Origin: Escherichia phage BYEP01
Strand: one strand, 5' to 3'
DNA: 64,000 bases
Sequence record: OR757453.1
The notes beneath the pieces were generated by a model. That model worked only from the letters and a program-made list of their open reading frames with translations, was not told where the DNA came from and did no database searches. The translations under genes were made by a program, and so were the position numbers. Of the stretch, positions 2,531 to 27,373 are shown one piece after another (position 1 is the stretch's first letter; each line of letters begins with the position of its first letter).

Positions 2531-3001
2531 TTATTGACTGGCAAATTATATAAAGAAGAAAAACAGAAATTTTATGATGCACAAAATGGTAAATGCTTAA
2601 TTTGCCAACGAGAACTAAATCCTGATGTTCAAGCTAATCACCTTGACCATGACCATGAATTAAATGGACCAAAAGCAGGAAAGGTACGTGGATTGCTCTG
2701 TAATCTCTGTAATGCAGCAGAAGGTCAAATGAAGCATAAATTCAATCGTTCTGGCTTAAAGGGACAAGGTGTTGATTATCTTGAATGGTTAGAAAATTTA
2801 CTTACTTATTTAAAATCCGATTACACCCAAAATAATATTCACCCTAACTTTGTTGGAGATAAATCAAAGGAATTTTCTCGTTTAGGAAAAGAGGAAATGA
2901 TGGCTGAGATGCTTCAAAGAGGATTTGAATATAATGAATCTGACACTAAAACACAATTAATAGCTTCATTTAAGAAGCAGCTTAGAAAGAGTTTAAAATG
3001 A
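2528..3001 (+). CDS. 49: endonuclease VII (Holliday junction resolvase), 157 aa
   Basis: Protein MLLTGKLYKEEKQKFYDAQNGKCLICQ... recognised as T4 gp49; zinc-binding Cys cluster; length 157 aa. Confidence 0.9.
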   Translation: MLLTGKLYKEEKQKFYDAQNGKCLICQRELNPDVQANHLDHDHELNGPKAGKVRGLLCNLCNAAEGQMKHKFNRSGLKGQGVDYLEWLENLLTYLKSDYTQNNIHPNFVGDKSKEFSRLGKEEMMAEMLQRGFEYNESDTKTQLIASFKKQLRKSLK

Positions 3002-3535
3002 CGATTGAAAAAGAAATTGAAGGATTAATTCATAAAACTAATAAAGACCTTTTAAACGAGAATGCTAATAAAGATTCTCGTGTTTTTCCAACTCAACGGG
3101 ACCTTATGGCTGGTATTGTGTCTAAACATATTGCCAAAAATATGGTCCCGTCTTTTATTATGAAAGCGCATGAAAGCGGAATTATTCACGTGCACGATAT
3201 TGATTATTCCCCTGCTCTTCCATTTACTAATTGCTGTTTAGTAGATTTAAAAGGAATGCTTGAGAATGGATTTAAGCTCGGTAATGCACAGATTGAAACT
3301 CCTAAATCAATCGGTGTTGCTACTGCAATTATGGCACAAATTACTGCGCAGGTTGCTTCTCATCAATATGGCGGAACGACTTTTGCGAATGTAGATAAAG
3401 TACTTTCTCCTTATGTTAAACGCACCTATGCAAAACATATTGAGGACGCAGAAAAATGGCAAATCGCTGACGCGTTGAATTATGCCCAATCTAAAACAGA
3501 AAAAGACGTATACGATGCATTCCAAGCTTATGAGT
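2998..3535 (+). CDS. nrdD: anaerobic ribonucleotide reductase NrdD, exon 1
   Basis: ORF aligns to N-terminal third of class III RNR; ORF ends in stop 3541-3543 inside intron; 5' splice site after U3535 inferred from P1 pairing. Confidence 0.85.
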
Positions 3536-3868
3536 TAATTTAATTCAGGCTCATGTAAAACCGGTCTAAACGGGGAACCTCTCTAGTAGACAATCCCGTG
3601 CTAAATGTTCTTTTGAACTAAATGCCTAACGACTAACCGTGATGAATGTAGCGGTGTAGAATAGAAGCTAATGCTATTCGAAACGGCCGGCATCGAAAGA
3701 TGAAGATATAGTCTAATCTGCATGGCGACATGCAGCAGTCATCTTGTATAAATAAGATTATCTTATGAATACGAGGTGAAACAATGAAATGGATAAAAGA
3801 CGTTGCATATCTATGGACTATCCAAATTTTGTTGTTTCATATAAACGGGCATGAATTTGCGTCTCATG
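3536..3868 (+). ncRNA. group I self-splicing intron in nrdD, no homing endonuclease ORF (about 333 nt)
   Basis: P1: exon atgagt (3530-3535) pairs with intron gctcat (3549-3554) with U.G at splice site; P10: ttcag (3544-3548) pairs with exon-2 start ctgaa (3869-3873); conserved P (cggggaa), Q (aatcccgtgc), R (acgactaa) and S (aagatatagtc) elements; P9 hairpin ctgcatggcgacatgcag; omega-G at 3868. Confidence 0.75.
3747..3754 (+). promoter_or_regulatory. late-promoter consensus TATAAATA inside the nrdD intron
   Basis: Exact TATAAATA; followed by SD gaggtg and in-frame ATG at 3784. Confidence 0.4.
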
Positions 3869-5160
3869 CTGAATATAATGATGAAGTAAATACACTTTTC
3901 AGCTCTAATGGACAAACGCCTTTTGTAACAATTACGTTTGGTACGGGAACCGACTGGACTGAACGAATGATTCAGAAAGCAATTCTTAAAAACCGCATTA
4001 AAGGCCTTGGTCGTGATGGGATAACTCCTATTTTCCCTAAGCTTGTTATGTTCGTTGAAGAGGGTGTTAATCTTTATAAAGACGATCCGAACTATGATAT
4101 TAAGCAGCTTGCTTTAGAGTGCGCAAGCAAAAGGATGTATCCTGATATTATTTCAGCTAAGAACAATAAAGCTATCACGGGTTCATCTATTCCTGTTTCT
4201 CCAATGGGTTGTCGTAGTTTCTTGGGCGTATGGAAAGATTCCACTGGTAATGAAATTCTTGATGGACGTAATAATCTTGGCGTTGTAACACTGAATCTTC
4301 CTCGTATTGCGTTAGATTCTTATATTGGAACACAGTTCAATGAACAGAAATTTGCCGAATTGTTCAATGAACGAATGGATTTATGTTTTGAAGCTTTGAT
4401 GTGTAGAATTAGTTCCTTAAAAGGAGTTAAAGCGACTGTTGCTCCTATTCTTTATCAAGAAGGTGCATTCGGGGTTCGTCTTAAACCTGATGACGATATA
4501 ATTGAGTTATTTAAAAACGGTAGAAGTTCAGTGTCCCTAGGATACATTGGTATTCACGAATTGAATATTCTTGTCGGTCGTGATATTGGACAAGAAATTT
4601 TAACTAAAATGAATGCTCGTCTTAAGCAGTGGACTGAAAGAACCGGTTTTGCTTTTAGTTTGTATTCTACTCCTGCTGAAAACCTGTGCTATCGCTTCTG
4701 TAAACTTGATACCGAAAAATATGGAAGTGTAAAAGATGTTACCGATAAAGGCTGGTACACTAACAGTTTCCACGTTTCAGTAGAAGAAAATATTACTCCG
4801 TTTGAAAAGATTTCTCGCGAAGCCCCGTATCATTTCATTGCGACAGGTGGTCACATTTCTTATGTTGAACTTCCTGATATGAAAAATAACTTAAAAGGCC
4901 TTGAGGCCATATGGGATTATGCTGCACAACATTTAGATTATTTTGGTGTTAACATGCCGGTAGATAAATGTTTTACATGCGGAAGTACCCATGAAATGAC
5001 TCCTACTGAAAACGGATTTGTTTGTTCTATTTGTGGAGAAACTGATCCTAAAAAGATGAACACAATAAGAAGAACATGCGGATATCTTGGAACTCCTAGC
5101 GTTGTTCCATGGAATTTAGGTAAAATGAAAGAAATGGTAAAACGAGTAAAACATGCATAG
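3869..5160 (+). CDS. nrdD: anaerobic ribonucleotide reductase NrdD, exon 2 (glycyl-radical domain)
   Basis: Contains C-terminal Cys cluster CFTCG...CSICG and glycyl radical motif RRTCGYLG; frame continuous with exon 1 after splicing (…AYE-S-EYNDEV…); total about 609 aa. Confidence 0.85.
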
Positions 5161-5983
5161 GTATTATATAATTTATAAAATAACAAATATAATTAATTCA
5201 AAGGAATATATCGGTGCGCATAGCACCGATAACATAAATGACGGTTATATGGGGTCAGGAACATTGATTCGTGCCGCTTTATTAAAATATGGTAGAAAAA
5301 ATTTTAATAAAGAAATTTTACATGTTTTTGATAATGAAAAACAAATGTATGATAAAGAAGCTGAACTTGTAACCGAAGAGTATTGTCTAAAAGAAAATAC
5401 ATATAATATTAAACCTGGTGGAAAAGGTGGAACTGCCTATGAACAGACACTTGAACATCGCCGCAAAAATAGTTTAGCAAATAAAGGTAAAAAGAGAACA
5501 GAAGAAACTAAAATAGCTATTTCACGTGCTTTAAAGAAATATAAACGTACGCCAGCGCATCAAGCAAATTTAAATAAAGCCGTAAGCATAGCTATGAAGC
5601 GAAAAGATGTTAGAAGTAAATTAGCTGGAGAGCGGTCTGAGAAAGATAAATTATCTATATCAAACGGTGTTAAAAAATATTACAATTCTTTGAGTGAAGA
5701 AGAACGCGAACTTCATCGCAAGCGAATTATTGAAGGTAAAAAGAATTCTCCCATGTCATTGGAATCTAGACAAAAGCTTTCAAAAGCTTTAAAAGGACTT
5801 CAAGTTGGTTCAAAAAATCCAATGTATGGAAAAATTTCTCCAACTAGCAAAACCGTTTCAGTTGACGGTATTAAATATGATTCAATTAAAAAGTGCTCAA
5901 ATGCCATAAAAGTTTCTAGACATCTTATACTAAAACGCTGTAATTCTACTGATGAAGCTTGGAAAAATTGGATATTATTATGA
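5153..5983 (+). CDS. freestanding GIY-YIG homing endonuclease (276 aa)
   Basis: N-terminal YYIIYKITN...YIGAHS (GIY-YIG) motif, basic NUMOD-like middle, C-terminal HTH-like tail; start overlaps nrdD stop, stop overlaps nrdG start. Confidence 0.8.
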   Translation: MHRYYIIYKITNIINSKEYIGAHSTDNINDGYMGSGTLIRAALLKYGRKNFNKEILHVFDNEKQMYDKEAELVTEEYCLKENTYNIKPGGKGGTAYEQTLEHRRKNSLANKGKKRTEETKIAISRALKKYKRTPAHQANLNKAVSIAMKRKDVRSKLAGERSEKDKLSISNGVKKYYNSLSEEERELHRKRIIEGKKNSPMSLESRQKLSKALKGLQVGSKNPMYGKISPTSKTVSVDGIKYDSIKKCSNAIKVSRHLILKRCNSTDEAWKNWILL

Positions 5984-23264: not shown

Positions 23265-24005
23265 ATGATTAATGACTCTATGACAGTTGAAGAAATCCGT
23301 CTTCATTTGGGAATTGCATTAAAGGAAAAAGATTTCGTAGTTGATAAAACTGGTGTTAAAACTATTGAAATTATTGGCGCATCATTTGTAGCAGATGAAC
23401 CGTTTATTTTTGGCGCTCTTAATGATGAATACATTCAGCGTGAACTTGAATGGTATAAATCTAAAAGCTTGTTTGTTAAAGATATTCCAGGTGAAACACC
23501 GAAGATTTGGCAACAAGTAGCATCTTCTAAAGGCGAAATTAACTCGAATTATGGTTGGGCTATCTGGTCAGAAGATAACTATGCCCAGTATGATATGTGT
23601 TTAGCTGAACTTGGTCAAAATCCTGATTCTCGACGTGGTATCATGATTTATACTCGTCCATCCATGCAGTTTGACTACAATAAAGATGGTATGTCAGATT
23701 TCATGTGTACGAATACAGTACAGTACCTGATTCGTGATAAGAAAGTCAATGCAGTTGTTAATATGAGAAGCAATGACTGCTGGGCAGGCTATCGTAATGA
23801 TTATGCATGGCAAAAATACGTACTAGATAAATTAGTATCTGATTTGAATGCAGGCGACCCATCGCGGCAATATAAAGCAGGTTCTATTATATGGAACGTT
23901 GGAAGTCTCCATGTGTACGAAAATCAGTTTTATTTAGTTGACCATTGGTGGAAAACTGGCGAAACTCATATTGCGAAAAAAGATTATAATGGTGAGTGGA
24001 AATGA
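23265..24005 (+). CDS. 42: dCMP hydroxymethylase gp42, 246 aa
   Basis: Thymidylate-synthase-like fold sequence recognised as T4 gp42. Confidence 0.9.
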   Translation: MINDSMTVEEIRLHLGIALKEKDFVVDKTGVKTIEIIGASFVADEPFIFGALNDEYIQRELEWYKSKSLFVKDIPGETPKIWQQVASSKGEINSNYGWAIWSEDNYAQYDMCLAELGQNPDSRRGIMIYTRPSMQFDYNKDGMSDFMCTNTVQYLIRDKKVNAVVNMRSNDCWAGYRNDYAWQKYVLDKLVSDLNAGDPSRQYKAGSIIWNVGSLHVYENQFYLVDHWWKTGETHIAKKDYNGEWK

Positions 24006-24844
24006 TTCAATTCGTAATTCCAAGCTATCAACGCGTAGGGGCAGTTTCTGCCCTTGATATGTTTCCATCTGATTATGAACCTCATATTGTAGTACGTAAA
24101 CACGAAGAAAAAGCTTATTATGACGCTTATGGGTCTAGAGCTAAAATTATAACTATTCCTGATGATGTCAATGGAATTGCTGGTACTCGTAAAGCAATTA
24201 CTGATATGTATGCAGGTCAACGAATCTGGATGATTGATGATGATACTACTATTCGTATGAGTTCAATGCGAAAGAAAGATGATCGTCGCTGCGTAGATAA
24301 AATTAATCAATTAACCCGTGAACAGTTCTATGAATTGATTCAATACGTTGAAGATGCCATGGATTGCGGGTATTATCATGGTCATGCTCGTCTACCTATT
24401 TTTAAAATTACTTCATCTTGGGGTAATTATCGTGAAAATTCATATGGATTCACAAATACATGGTATGACCTTGGAAAACTTACAACAGAACAAATTGGGT
24501 ATGGAAAAATTGATTTATGCGAAGATATGTATGCATTTCTCAATTTAATTAATCAAGGTTATCCGCATTTGGCCTTGTTCAAATATCTGGTTGTATCCGG
24601 AAAAGCACAAGCTCCTGGCGGATGTAGTTCAATTCGTAGTAATTCAAAACATAATAGAGCGCTCGAGCAAATCAATAGAGAGTTTCCAGAGCAAGCTCGT
24701 TGGAAAACTTCTAATATTGAAAAGAGAAAATCATTGGGTGAAGAAGACGAGCCATTAAAGGTTCTTCGCATGTGTGTTTCACGTAAAGAAAAATCAGAAG
24801 CGTTTCATAAGTTTAATGCTATTCATCCAATAGCAGTTGATTAA
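24002..24844 (+). CDS. glycosyltransferase at the beta-gt locus (not T4 beta-gt; possibly T2/T6-type beta-alpha-glucosyltransferase)
   Basis: 280-aa protein with DDD motif; differs in length and sequence from 351-aa T4 beta-gt; ATGA overlap with gene 42. Confidence 0.5.
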   Translation: MIQFVIPSYQRVGAVSALDMFPSDYEPHIVVRKHEEKAYYDAYGSRAKIITIPDDVNGIAGTRKAITDMYAGQRIWMIDDDTTIRMSSMRKKDDRRCVDKINQLTREQFYELIQYVEDAMDCGYYHGHARLPIFKITSSWGNYRENSYGFTNTWYDLGKLTTEQIGYGKIDLCEDMYAFLNLINQGYPHLALFKYLVVSGKAQAPGGCSSIRSNSKHNRALEQINREFPEQARWKTSNIEKRKSLGEEDEPLKVLRMCVSRKEKSEAFHKFNAIHPIAVD

Positions 24845-24921: not shown

Positions 24922-25851
24922 ATGTCTATTGCAGATTTAAAATCCCGTTTGATTAAAGCTTCCACTTCTAAAATGACTGCTGAACTGACTACATCTAAAT
25001 TCTTTAATGAAAAGGATGTAATTCGTACAAAAATCCCAATGCTTAATATCGCTATTTCTGGCGCGATTGATGGTGGTATGCAGTCTGGTTTAACCATTTT
25101 TGCAGGTCCTTCTAAACACTTTAAATCAAATATGTCTTTGACTATGGTTGCGGCGTATTTGAACAAATATCCTGACGCGGTTTGTCTATTTTATGATAGC
25201 GAATTTGGTATTACTCCAGCTTATTTGCGGTCCATGGGAGTTGACCCTGAACGAGTAATTCATACGCCAATTCAGTCAGTTGAACAACTGAAAATTGATA
25301 TGGTGAATCAGCTTGAAGCTATTGAGCGTGGTGAAAAAGTTATTGTATTCATCGACTCAATCGGTAATATGGCTTCTAAGAAAGAAACGGAAGATGCCTT
25401 GAATGAAAAATCTGTGGCAGATATGACTCGTGCTAAATCACTGAAGTCATTATTCCGTATTGTTACTCCTTATTTTAGCATTAAAAATATTCCATGTGTT
25501 GCGGTTAACCATACAATTGAAACAATTGAAATGTTTAGTAAAACCGTGATGACAGGTGGTTGTGTTATTGCTGGTACTAAAATCCAGATGTCCGATGGTT
25601 CTACTAAAGCAGTTGAAGATATTCGTCCAGGTGAGCGTGTTAAAACCATGGTCGGTGATAATGAAGTAACTTATGTTTGGGACCCCGAAACTCTGGCTGA
25701 AGGTACTCCTGAATGTTTCGAAATTGAATTCGAAGACGGTTATAAAGTAACTACTTCAGATACTCACAAGTTCCTGGTAATGGTTAAAGACATTCCAACT
25801 TGGGTTGAAGCTAAAGATTTAGTAGCTGGAATGGATTGTGTTGTAAGGTAA
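24922..25851 (+). CDS. uvsX: UvsX recombinase N-terminal extein (213 aa) fused to split-intein N-fragment (96 aa)
   Basis: N-part recognised as T4 UvsX up to ...FSKTVMTGG, then CVIAGTKIQM... intein block A and TTSDTHKF block B; TAA stop 25849-25851. Confidence 0.85.
   Translation: MSIADLKSRLIKASTSKMTAELTTSKFFNEKDVIRTKIPMLNIAISGAIDGGMQSGLTIFAGPSKHFKSNMSLTMVAAYLNKYPDAVCLFYDSEFGITPAYLRSMGVDPERVIHTPIQSVEQLKIDMVNQLEAIERGEKVIVFIDSIGNMASKKETEDALNEKSVADMTRAKSLKSLFRIVTPYFSIKNIPCVAVNHTIETIEMFSKTVMTGGCVIAGTKIQMSDGSTKAVEDIRPGERVKTMVGDNEVTYVWDPETLAEGTPECFEIEFEDGYKVTTSDTHKFLVMVKDIPTWVEAKDLVAGMDCVVR
25561..25848 (+). other. split intein N-terminal fragment (IntN)
   Basis: Begins with Cys codon 25561 after extein Gly; contains TxxH block B. 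Confidence 0.8.
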
Positions 25852-25854
25852 TAA

Positions 25855-25897
25855 ATATGGGTACCGGACTAATGTATATTTTTGAGGTACCCATATG
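25855..25897 (+). promoter_or_regulatory. 11-bp perfect stem-loop sequestering SD and start codon of the GIY-YIG gene
   Basis: atatgggtacc (25855-25865) pairs with ggtacccatat (25886-25896); ATG 25895. Confidence 0.6.
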
Positions 25898-26617
25898 AAT
25901 TTTGTCTATAAAATTGTGTTCAACGATAGAATTAAAAACGGCACTCCGCCATATTACTACATAGGGAGCAAGACAAATGCTTCTTATGTAGATGGTAAGA
26001 TTATTGACGCCCACGGTCGTGAGTACTATGGCTCATCGAGATATCCCGGATATCATGATTTTATCAATAATGTTACTGTTGAAATATTGGAGCAATATGA
26101 TGATATTAAACACACTAAACTGCTAGAGCGCGAAAATTTCTATCAGAAACAAGTAAATGTTAAAACAAATCCAGATTATTTTAATTTAGATTATGCTTGT
26201 GGGCATAATTCATATGCTAATGCTGATTTTGCATCATACAAGCATTATATAACAGGTAAATGTATTCGTCTTGAAAGAAACCATCCGCTTGTTAAATCTG
26301 GTGTGTATGTTGGCGTCACAAAAGGCGTGAAATCTTCTGATGAACACCGTAAGCACATATCAGAAGGTATTACCGGAGAAAACAATGGGTTCTATGGTAA
26401 GAAACACACTAAAGAAACAATTAATAAAATATCAGAAAAAGCAAAGAAAAGATTAAAGCATTCCCATCCTAGACAAAAAGGTGTTATCATAAACGGTATT
26501 GAATACCGGGGCGTCAGACCTGCTGCAAGAGCGTTGGGAATTAATCCTAACACAATTATCAACAAAATTAAAGCTAATATAAAAGGATGGGCTTATGCAG
26601 TAGATGCACGCGGTTAA
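25895..26617 (+). CDS. freestanding GIY-YIG homing endonuclease, 240 aa, between intein halves
   Basis: VYKIVFND...YYYIGSK GIY-YIG motif; NGFYGKKH NUMOD-like repeat; C-terminal HTH (AARALGIN). Confidence 0.8.
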   Translation: MNFVYKIVFNDRIKNGTPPYYYIGSKTNASYVDGKIIDAHGREYYGSSRYPGYHDFINNVTVEILEQYDDIKHTKLLERENFYQKQVNVKTNPDYFNLDYACGHNSYANADFASYKHYITGKCIRLERNHPLVKSGVYVGVTKGVKSSDEHRKHISEGITGENNGFYGKKHTKETINKISEKAKKRLKHSHPRQKGVIINGIEYRGVRPAARALGINPNTIINKIKANIKGWAYAVDARG

Positions 26618-26725
26618 GGCATTCGAAGATATGGTAAAAGAATTTGGAATGAACATGACAATCAAGATTATGCTTTCATGAAATATGTATATTGAAACTA
26701 GCTACTACGAAACACAAGGTAAAGT

Positions 26726-26830
26726 ATGAAAATTAAATCTGTTAAATCTGTTGGTAAAAAAGAAGTCTATGATTTGTCTGTTGCTGACGTCGAGCATTAT
26801 GTTTTAGAAAATGGTATCGTTACACACAAC
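26726..26830 (+). other. split intein C-terminal fragment (IntC)
   Basis: 35 aa ending HN followed by +1 Thr; resembles DnaE-type IntC. Confidence 0.8.
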
Positions 26831-27373
26831 ACAGGCGTAATGTATTCGGCTGATACTGTATTCATTATCGGTAAACGTCAGATTAAAGATGGTTCTGATC
26901 TTCAGGGGTATCAATTTGTTCTAAATGTAGAAAAATCTCGTACCGTTAAAGAAAAAAGTAAATTCTTTATTGATGTTAAATTTGACGGTGGTATCGATCC
27001 TTATTCTGGATTATTAGATATGGCTCTTGAATTAGGATTTGTGGTAAAACCTAAAAATGGCTGGTATGCTCGTGAATTTCTTGACGAAGAAACCGGCGAG
27101 ATGATTCGCGAAGAAAAATCTTGGCGTGCAAAAGATACCAATTGCACTACATTCTGGGGTCCTTTATTTAAGCATCAACCATTCCGAGATGCTATTAAAC
27201 GCGCTTATCAGTTAGGTGCTATTGATAGTAATGAAATTGTTGAAGCTGAAGTTGATGAATTAATTAACTCAAAGGTTGAAAAATTTAAATCTCCAGAAAG
27301 TAAAAGTAAATCAGCAGCTGATTTAGAAACTGACCTAGATCAGTTAAGTGATATGGAAGAATTTAATGAATAA
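26726..27373 (+). CDS. uvsX: split-intein C-fragment (35 aa) fused to UvsX C-terminal extein (180 aa)
   Basis: MKIKSVKSVGKKEVYDLSVADVEHYVLENGIVTHN then TGVMYSADTVFIIGK... matching T4 UvsX C-terminus; own SD aagg. Confidence 0.85.
   Translation: MKIKSVKSVGKKEVYDLSVADVEHYVLENGIVTHNTGVMYSADTVFIIGKRQIKDGSDLQGYQFVLNVEKSRTVKEKSKFFIDVKFDGGIDPYSGLLDMALELGFVVKPKNGWYAREFLDEETGEMIREEKSWRAKDTNCTTFWGPLFKHQPFRDAIKRAYQLGAIDSNEIVEAEVDELINSKVEKFKSPESKSKSAADLETDLDQLSDMEEFNE

Follow-up and report, generated by a model that had tools for sequence, protein, structure and literature searches.

The uvsX gene of Escherichia phage BYEP01 as a probable fractured gene: split-intein halves on either side of a homing-endonuclease gene

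The uvsX locus and its uninterrupted counterpart

Escherichia phage BYEP01 carries its recombinase gene, uvsX, in two parts that are separated by a third gene. In the window, i.e., the whole 64,000-nucleotide (nt) stretch of this phage genome that was analysed (sequence record OR757453.1), the open reading frame (ORF) list and the translations reveal three ORFs on the same strand at this locus: 24922-25851, 25895-26617, and 26726-27373 (Table 1). The first ORF (309 codons, uninterrupted) encodes 213 residues of UvsX, which constitute its ATPase core and end in ...NHTIETIEMFSKTVMTGG (...FSKTVMTGG), followed by the 96 residues of an intein N-fragment (IntN), which starts with CVIAGTKIQM at nt 25561. 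The third ORF (215 codons, with AAGG positioned 6 nt 5′ of its ATG) encodes an intein C-fragment (IntC) fused to the remainder of UvsX, and this C-extein opens with Thr, the +1 nucleophile (TGVMYSADTVFIIGK...; TGVMYSAD). Between the stop of the N-precursor and the following UvsX-frame ATG there are 874 nt (25852-26725), and the free-standing endonuclease gene is located in this interval. An earlier sequence-only reading of this DNA had described the same layout; on re-reading of the ORFs and the nucleotides, all its coordinates and quoted peptides were exact, as was the 874-bp insert between the TAA and the new ATG.

Joined to each other, the two exteins (393 residues) align without a gap with the sequence of the T4 UvsX crystal structure (3io5; E = 3e-203, over residues 31-360), and the C-extein is near-identical to T4 UvsX residues 212-391. 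At the junction (marked by a slash), the window reads SKTVMTGG/TGVMYSAD, while T4 UvsX reads SKTVMGGG/TGPMYSAD. The proposals that the flanking ORFs are colinear with one UvsX, and that MTGG/TGVMYSAD is contiguous in the intact protein, thus agree with the alignment.

The element sits between codons Gly213 and Thr214 (Gly211 and Thr212 in T4). This position appears to correspond to G212/N213 in E. coli RecA, directly after the conserved Gly-Gly (alignment E = 1e-13). On this alignment, the insertion site is three residues past the RecA loop L2 (195-209), at its C-terminal edge. Hence, the junction is near the L2 loop and not, as had been suggested, inside it. A His that we take to be the allosteric-switch residue of T4 UvsX (His195) precedes the junction by 16 residues.

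An uninterrupted version of the gene is present in a close relative. The uvsX of Shigella phage vB_SsoM_113 (Tequatrovirus) shares 98.2% nucleotide identity with the window exteins, and around the junction 66 nt on the 5′ side and 29 nt on the 3′ side are identical. An occupied/empty pair of uvsX alleles is therefore present among Tequatrovirus. Because an intein-less allele with identical flanks exists, the inserted element can be delimited exactly, to 25561-26830 (1,270 nt). Near the junction there are only three candidate sites for intein-linked single-nucleotide polymorphisms, such as a co-conversion tract would leave (extein nt 573, 669, and 687), as judged against this single intein-less comparator.

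The uvsX gene of T4 itself (L014:3387-4562) is a mosaic relative to window 24922-27373. Extein nt 1-650 are approximately 22% different, nt 690-1182 only approximately 1-2%, and the switch point falls within approximately 30 nt of the intein insertion site. In T4, segA is located just upstream of uvsX, and SegA has also been reported to target uvsX (PMC2988022); the window lacks segA. The switch near the insertion site may reflect a shared recombination or cleavage hotspot. In the window, the 5′ neighbour of uvsX (23996-24844, + strand) is a T2/T6-type beta-glucosyl-HMC-alpha-glucosyltransferase gene (HMC, hydroxymethylcytosine), so annotated in phage HY03. It occupies the place of the T4 beta-gt and segA genes, and the phage is hence not T4-type at the uvsX locus.

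Table 1. Features of the interrupted uvsX locus in the window (all coordinates refer to the 64,000-nt stretch)
Feature	Coordinates	Strand	Details
uvsX N-extein	24922..25560	+	213 codons, UvsX residues 1-213; Pfam RecA, phrog_8337/phrog_97
Split-intein N-fragment	25561..25848	+	96 codons; block A CVIAGT with Cys1; block B S-D-T-H
Double stop, TAA TAA, terminating the N-precursor	25849..25854	+	sequence
Late-promoter-like AATAAATA	25850..25857	+	one mismatch to the T4 late consensus TATAAATA; overlaps the 5′ arm of the hairpin
RNA hairpin	25855..25896	+	11-bp perfect stem (25855-25865/25886-25896), 20-nt loop, -17.7 kcal/mol
Homing-endonuclease gene, free-standing	25895..26617	+	240 codons; own GAGG 8 nt 5′ of ATG
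Spacer, endonuclease stop to C-precursor ATG	26618..26725	+	108 nt; contains AAGG 26716-19
Split-intein C-fragment	26726..26830	+	35 codons; block F Asp (VYDLSV); block G ...ENGIVTHN
uvsX C-extein	26831..27373	+	180 codons + stop; Pfam T4_UVSX_C 2e-39; phrog_18112

Intein halves, endonuclease, and expression signals

Joined in silico, the two intein fragments give a 131-residue sequence that matches the split inteins Npu DnaE (2keq; E = 1.4e-5) and gp41-1 (6qaz; E = 3e-4). With a profile built from ten homologues of the joined intein, the corresponding values are 3e-8 and 9e-8, and the Mxe GyrA, Pho RadA, and Mtu RecA inteins are matched as well. The C-fragment passes the NCBIfam model TIGR01443 (intein_Cterm) with 29.9 bits relative to a cutoff of 15.6. 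Moreover, the break in the window (...MDCVVR / MKIKSVKSVGKK...) aligns on the break in Npu DnaE (...VDNLPN / IKIATRKYLGKQ...), with the C-fragment aligned from its first residue, and this split point is the canonical insertion site of homing-endonuclease domains. These matches and the invariance of Cys1 (see below) bear out the 96-codon N-fragment with Cys1 in block A, and the TIGR01443 score bears out the 35-residue C-fragment; both had been proposed in the sequence-only reading, the latter as fused to a C-extein starting with Thr.

The residues of class-1 splicing are present, i.e., Cys1, the His of block B, the Asp of block F, the His-Asn of block G, and Thr+1. In ten aligned inteins, with identities down to 56%, C1, S66, H69, D112, H130, and N131 are invariant. 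The terminal HN is followed by T in all 13 phage loci and by Ser at +1 in the metagenomic locus L018. The two halves also carry opposite charges: the net charge of IntN is -9, while the first 14 residues of IntC, with the basic N-terminus MKIKSVKSVGKK, carry +4.

The middle ORF matches Pfam NUMOD3 (3e-10) and, weakly, NUMOD1/helix-turn-helix, and PHROGs assigns it to homing-endonuclease families. The NCBIfam model for the I-TevI family, TIGR01453 ("group I intron endonuclease"), gives it 53.9 bits, with the cutoff at 56.05. Residues 1-112 give no match to the Pfam GIY-YIG model (PF01541) at E up to 10, although this model does match T4 SegA and the endonuclease of Shewanella phage Thanatos-1. 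In an AlphaFold2 model based on 13 homologues (predicted local distance difference test, pLDDT, 86) the two best PDB matches are the DNA-binding domain of I-TevI (1i3j; E = 1e-3, probability 1.00) and its catalytic domain (1ln0; probability 0.97, template-modelling score, TM, 0.63). The layout comprises an N-terminal catalytic domain, the NUMOD3 motif, and a C-terminal helix-turn-helix. E80 and N97 show no variation across the 13 homologues, E80 lying in a string, ERENF, that I-TevI has as well, and Y5 and Y22-I-G24 are nearly invariant (at least 90%). The modelled fold and the catalytic residues fit, the Pfam model does not, and the middle ORF is accepted here as a divergent, predicted GIY-YIG-type homing endonuclease of the I-TevI-like kind. 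The earlier assignment to GIY-YIG endonucleases therefore stands with respect to the modelled 1ln0-like fold and the catalytic residues, but not with respect to the Pfam GIY-YIG model. Close kinship to T4 SegA was also considered and rejected, since the E value is only 0.02.

Over the start of the endonuclease gene, a hairpin sequesters by pairing half of its Shine-Dalgarno sequence (GAGG, 25884-25887) together with the first two letters of its start codon, AU. In an alignment of five related loci, 96% of the cells are paired and four of the 11 pairs are compensatory, e.g., a G-C pair that is replaced by A-U in phages RPN226 and Lion_ER11. In 500 shuffles and in slid registers, this level of pairing and compensation was never reached. 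More distant loci have nonhomologous hairpins in the same position, and the exact late-promoter consensus TATAAATA is found within the equivalent hairpins of Proteus phage PM2, Pseudomonas phage PspYZU05, and Yersinia phage TG1. The window locus has no exact TATAAATA.

In the four close loci aligned, no variation is seen in the Shine-Dalgarno sequence, the ATG, or the opening codons of the C-precursor, whether the endonuclease gene ends 38-142 nt upstream of them or overlaps them. The spacer 26618-26725 is rich in insertions and deletions among near-identical Tequatrovirus loci. Its equivalent measures 142 nt in HY03 (L001:4697-4838, with an extra 34 nt) and 38 nt in RPN226 (L013:3188-3225, with approximately 70 nt lost), and the 3′ end of the RPN226 endonuclease differs from that of the window. 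The endonuclease and C-precursor ORFs overlap in Lion_ER11, UFV01, SEA1, TG1, and EniLVp02, an overlap of 4 nt being seen in genera other than Tequatrovirus, and there is no overlap in the window. No convincing promoter was found in spacer 26618-26725; a MotA-box-like TGCTTTCA in this spacer was rejected as an internal promoter because its spacing is wrong and it is not conserved in RPN226.

Distribution, selection, and mobility of the element

Relatives were identified by tblastn of the intein N-fragment against phage genomes, and the 27 records found represent 18 distinct phages with a uvsX intein. A word-indexed protein search with the 96-residue N-fragment yielded no more than 16 metagenomic fragments and none of the known phage proteins. 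The window phage is a Tequatrovirus; over the locus, the nearest record, vB_EcoM_SYGD1, is 99.2% identical. The same architecture is seen in six independently sequenced Tequatrovirus isolates, SYGD1, SP21535, ELT1, pSe_SNUABM_01, HY03, and RPN226, at 94.5-99.2% identity. The twelve further carriers are Klebsiella phage Lion_ER11; Salmonella phages CF-SP2 and SEA1; Enterobacter phages UFV01 and EnC07; Proteus phages PM2 and Pm5461; Shewanella phage Thanatos-1; Pseudomonas phage PspYZU05; Yersinia phage TG1; and Vibrio phages VmeM-32 and EniLVp02. Besides Tequatrovirus, the genera represented are Karamvirus, Gelderlandvirus, Bragavirus, Jiangsuvirus, and Tegunavirus, together with unclassified Shewanella and Vibrio phages. 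Within Tequatrovirus the element is rare: eight of approximately 480 records at this level (uvsX at least 95% identical), i.e., approximately 1-2%, carry it.

In twelve loci of intein-bearing relatives that were compared, the arrangement is conserved and the insertion site is invariably ...GG/TG.... A stop follows immediately 3′ of the intein N-fragment in 13 of the 13 loci compared, while the spacer from this stop to the ATG ranges from 501 to 1,066 nt. Estimated according to Nei and Gojobori, the ratio of nonsynonymous to synonymous substitution rates (dN/dS) is approximately 0.05-0.15 for the intein halves at a dS of 0.7-1.7 (taken part by part, 0.05-0.2 for IntN and 0.02-0.18 for IntC), and 0.03-0.28 for both exteins among the intein-bearing lineages. 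These low ratios in the intein halves and in the exteins indicate that selection keeps both the intein and the recombinase.

Comparison of Lion_ER11 (L002) and SEA1 (L004) gives an intein dS of 0.36, approximately fivefold below the extein dS of 1.8-2.0, which is near saturation. This difference indicates that, judging from substitution rates, the intein moved between genera after the uvsX genes of these two phages had diverged. The endonuclease shows a different fate: it is frameshifted in Yersinia phage TG1 (L009:2815-3799) and internally deleted in Vibrio phage VmeM-32 (L010:2763-3290), with the intein intact in both. In Thanatos-1 (L006:2778-3431), a different, Pfam-positive GIY-YIG protein is encoded, the ORF of which overlaps the end of the intein N-fragment, and metagenomic loci have an HNH-type endonuclease instead. 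If the element goes through a homing cycle and the intein cannot be dispensed with, decay and replacement of the endonuclease next to an intact intein are to be expected.

Metagenomic assemblies contain further variants of this gene. The T4-like contigs L015 (3346-6747), L016, and L017 (Logan assemblies SRR30164251, SRR30164232, and SRR30207033) have uvsX in three pieces, with two different split inteins and an endonuclease gene in each. The order is UvsX-N fused to the IntN of intein A, an HNH endonuclease, a 142-residue middle protein, a second endonuclease, and the IntC of intein B fused to UvsX-C. Intein A lies between ...NHTYQ and TQEM..., and the middle protein consists of the IntC of A, a 13-residue extein (TQEMYSKTVVSGG, essentially loop L2), and the IntN of B. 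To yield UvsX, this arrangement would need two orthogonal trans-splicing reactions, amounting to a natural three-fragment protein ligation; none of the 50,697 cultured-phage records has it. In addition, a 35.8-kb contig (ENA ERZ15610583; L018:1-4486) has the same uvsX split intein as the window, but with Ser at +1, and between the intein halves lie two large genes for HNH-type endonucleases (554 and 500 residues). Its 161-residue ORF P0011 is a contiguous mini-intein copy with short flanks (…NIKGG/C…HN/SETI) that overlaps the 3′ end of the C-terminal part of uvsX.

Two other observations concern the nrdD region of the window. A group I intron without an endonuclease ORF (3500-3735, + strand; Rfam RF00028, 72 bits) interrupts nrdD, the anaerobic ribonucleotide reductase gene (within 2998-5160; exon ORFs 2998-3543 and 3784-5160). 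Between nrdD and an nrdG-like ORF, a 276-residue ORF (5153-5983, + strand), beginning ...YIIYKITNIINSKEYIGAHS..., looks by eye like a seg-type GIY-YIG homing endonuclease.

Proposed trans-splicing, its alternatives, and known systems

The anatomy, the homology, the empty site, the conservation, the purifying selection, and the covarying hairpin are observations. In our view they make it highly probable that uvsX is here a "fractured gene" that depends on protein trans-splicing and spreads by homing. The architecture matches that of the fractured genes described from marine metagenomes by Dassa, London, Stoddard, Schueler-Furman and Pietrokovski (2009, NAR 37:2560), e.g., gp41-1, NrdJ-1, IMPDH-1, and NrdA-2 (PMC2677866), as had been proposed from the letters of the window.

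According to the proposed mechanism, a 309-residue UvsX(1-213)-IntN and a 215-residue IntC-UvsX(214-393) would be translated separately, each from its own ribosome-binding site. The acidic IntN and the basic start of IntC would then associate into a class-1 HINT domain. Trans-splicing would begin with an N-S acyl shift at Cys1 and continue with transesterification to Thr+1, after which Asn131 would cyclise and an O-N shift would follow. The predicted product, a scarless 393-residue UvsX of approximately 44 kDa, would read ...TVMTGG-TGVMYSAD... at its junction, as in the native protein, and trypsin would release from it the junction peptide TVMTGGTGVMYSADTVFIIGK. By analogy with I-TevI, Aeh1 mobE, and the fractured genes of 2009, the hairpin over the ribosome-binding site may silence the endonuclease on early and middle read-through transcripts. 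Transcripts made late, with their start inside the 5′ arm, would leave the ribosome-binding site accessible, and the endonuclease is thus probably a late product. In mixed infections, the endonuclease would cut intein-less uvsX, and recombinational repair would copy the whole element in (homing).

Several points weigh against this interpretation. With respect to the intein, the N-fragment scores 22.5 bits on TIGR01445 (intein_Nterm), 2 bits short of the cutoff of 24.5, its matches to Pfam Hint, Vint, and Intein_splicing are all below threshold, and Pfam PF14890 scores 16.8 and 21.7 with the cutoff at 35.8. The splicing-profile comparison suggested earlier is hence positive for the C-fragment (TIGR01443) and falls just below the cutoff for the N-fragment (TIGR01445). 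Block B has Ser (S-D-T-H) instead of the usual Thr in all homologues. A structural model of the contiguous metagenomic relative P0011 is of low confidence (pLDDT 55); its top PDB matches are all inteins, but with a TM of only 0.3-0.4. With respect to expression, AATAAATA is a weak candidate for a late promoter, given its one mismatch to the consensus, and a scan of the locus for sigma-70 promoters and terminators found fewer promoter-like sites than in shuffled controls. With respect to mobility, the nucleotide identities of intein and extein are similar in most pairs across genera, and recent transfer of the intein is, on sequence comparison, shown for only some pairs. Finally, uvsX is not strictly essential in T4, so loss of its function would be nonlethal.

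Of the alternatives, the one that survives best, although we regard it as unlikely, is that the two UvsX halves function as a noncovalent heterodimer, in which the intein fragments are mere association domains and no peptide bond is formed. The complementary charge of the halves could alone drive association, and unspliced but functional genes-in-pieces are found in T4-like phages, e.g., the endonuclease-split nrdA of Aeh1 and T4 genes 39/60 (PMC2677866; see also PMC3045599). However, residues that serve only the chemistry (Cys1, the His of block B and the Asp of block F, the penultimate His and terminal Asn, and Thr/Ser at +1) are invariant at a dN/dS of approximately 0.1 and at dS-saturated divergence. 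This argues against a heterodimer because association alone would not constrain catalytic residues. Moreover, an unspliced 131-residue HINT domain would stay beside loop L2, in the DNA-binding groove of the filament.

Inactivation of uvsX by a selfish insertion, with the phage living without UvsX or on host RecA and with decaying flanking ORFs, appears very improbable. It would be in keeping with the viability of T4 uvsX mutants, which show reduced burst size and UV sensitivity, and with the low frequency of the element among the Tequatrovirus records. Yet the exteins are full-length, in frame, and under purifying selection (dN/dS 0.03-0.28) in 18 phages of several genera. The window exteins are 98% identical to intact alleles, and decay hits the endonuclease, not uvsX.

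Even less credible is repair at the level of RNA or translation, i.e., an endonuclease-carrying group I intron or ribosomal bypassing that would generate one continuous ORF with a contiguous intein. T-even phages do have group I introns that contain endonuclease genes, the window has an ORF-less one at 3500-3735, the endonuclease scores on TIGR01453, and T4 gene 60 bypasses 50 nt. However, no Rfam family, RF00028 included, matches 25400-27000 at E up to 1, with the same library that finds the nrdD intron. Moreover, the stop, the Shine-Dalgarno sequence, and the ATG are conserved in 13 of 13 loci despite the different spacer lengths (501-1,066 nt), the endonuclease ORF overlaps the ATG of the C-fragment in several loci, and a gap of 874 nt with a translated ORF far exceeds the known cases of bypassing. 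A spurious stop or a chimeric insertion introduced by sequencing or assembly, a worry that applies to split genes in general [see e.g., the resequencing of phage ZZ1 (PMC4177764)], is practically discounted by the identical reading-frame logic in six Tequatrovirus and 12 distant phages with many substitutions.

The fractured-gene interpretation can also be considered in relation to known systems. Like the marine fractured genes, the uvsX locus has the order host-N plus IntN, free-standing endonuclease, IntC plus host-C, with the split at the place where the endonuclease domain is inserted. It also shares with them a T4-like phage, a host gene in DNA metabolism, a GIY-YIG/NUMOD endonuclease (in some published loci), and oppositely charged intein halves. 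A hairpin over the ribosome-binding site of the endonuclease gene is common to both, often with a late-promoter motif there; in the published set, hairpins were found at 15 of 16 fractured-gene endonucleases, ten with TATAAATA, and were linked to the translational repression of Aeh1 mobE (PMC2677866). Unlike the marine cases, the host gene is uvsX, the phages are cultured, tractable coliphages rather than read assemblies, and the +1 residue is Thr. The published hosts (gp41, IMPDH, DnaE, NrdA, NrdJ, ligase, and terminase; eight enzyme types) include uvsX just as a neighbour (PMC2677866). The 3′ end of the endonuclease gene overlaps the downstream gene in 15 published loci, a frequent but not universal feature (PMC2677866); the window endonuclease ORF has no such overlap, though relatives do.

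Among the split inteins with known structures, Npu and Ssp DnaE and gp41-1 (PDB 2keq, 4kl5, 6qaz) resemble the window intein in their fragments of approximately 100 and 35 residues, the split position, and the class-1 residues. The charge polarity of IntN and IntC is that of the DnaE-type split inteins discussed in PMC2677866. The differences are an identity of approximately 25%, a penultimate His where Npu has Ser, and Thr+1 instead of Cys (DnaE) or Ser (gp41-1). In addition, the two halves of DnaE come from loci that are far apart and lack an endonuclease, whereas the window halves flank an endonuclease gene.

Split inteins in cultured T4-like myoviruses have been reported for the PolB1 polymerases of Aes123 and CP21 (PMC11923092, PMC12707363). 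These are also split inteins in replication genes of isolated phages, but the host gene is the gp43 DNA polymerase, the inteins are cysteine-less, and the bacterial hosts are Aeromonas and Campylobacter, not E. coli. The Mtu RecA inteins (PDB 2imz/3ifj) also reside in a RecA-family recombinase, and the NCBIfam model "intein-containing recombinase RecA" gives a weak match. They differ in being contiguous, cis-splicing, and bacterial, with an in-frame endonuclease domain or remnants of one. The insertion site of the mycobacterial RecA intein presumably differs from that in uvsX as well.

With T4 SegA and I-TevI, the window endonuclease shares the modular organization of catalytic domain, NUMOD3 linker, and helix-turn-helix, and its model matches the folds of both I-TevI domains. 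Translational control by a hairpin is likewise known for I-TevI and Aeh1 mobE. Unlike SegA and I-TevI, it has a longer spacing from GIY to YIG, it is unmatched by the Pfam GIY-YIG model, and its gene is located inside an intein rather than between genes or within an intron.

The literature searched, with subscription-only papers and intein registries outside its scope, contains no published report of a uvsX intein or of a fractured gene in a T-even coliphage, and a 2024 paper states that no inteins were reported in coliphages (PMC11162368). The sequence-only reading knew of no description of the uvsX case either, in line with the absence of a published uvsX split intein from the literature covered. 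However, the architecture itself has been established since 2009 (PMC2677866), and the uvsX halves are already in GenBank and PHROGs, unrecognised. PHROGs keeps separate families for the two halves (phrog_8337 and phrog_18112), and one GenBank note mentions "HintC".

A further suggestion is that the element is no neutral passenger and that trans-splicing gates UvsX activity conditionally, e.g., through effects of timing, redox state, or temperature on Cys1 and on Cys52, which is also invariant. We regard this idea as doubtful. If true, the recombinase that executes homing and recombination-dependent replication would itself depend on the assembly of an intein, and the three-piece relatives, with the loop L2 segment on a polypeptide of its own, would carry this dependence further.

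Up to now, the main use of fractured genes has been in protein engineering, which they supply with fast split inteins. In this respect, the uvsX loci would add a Cys1/Thr+1 split-intein family whose natural variants are as little as 56% identical, and the three-piece relatives possibly an orthogonal, natural split-intein pair. The biology of fractured genes has hardly been studied, as no convenient pair of host and phage was at hand. The value of the present case would be a fractured gene in tractable T-even phages that form plaques on E. coli K-12, and in a well-characterised recombinase. Since nearly identical alleles without the intein circulate alongside, standard T4 genetics would suffice to measure splicing, homing frequency, co-conversion, and fitness cost.

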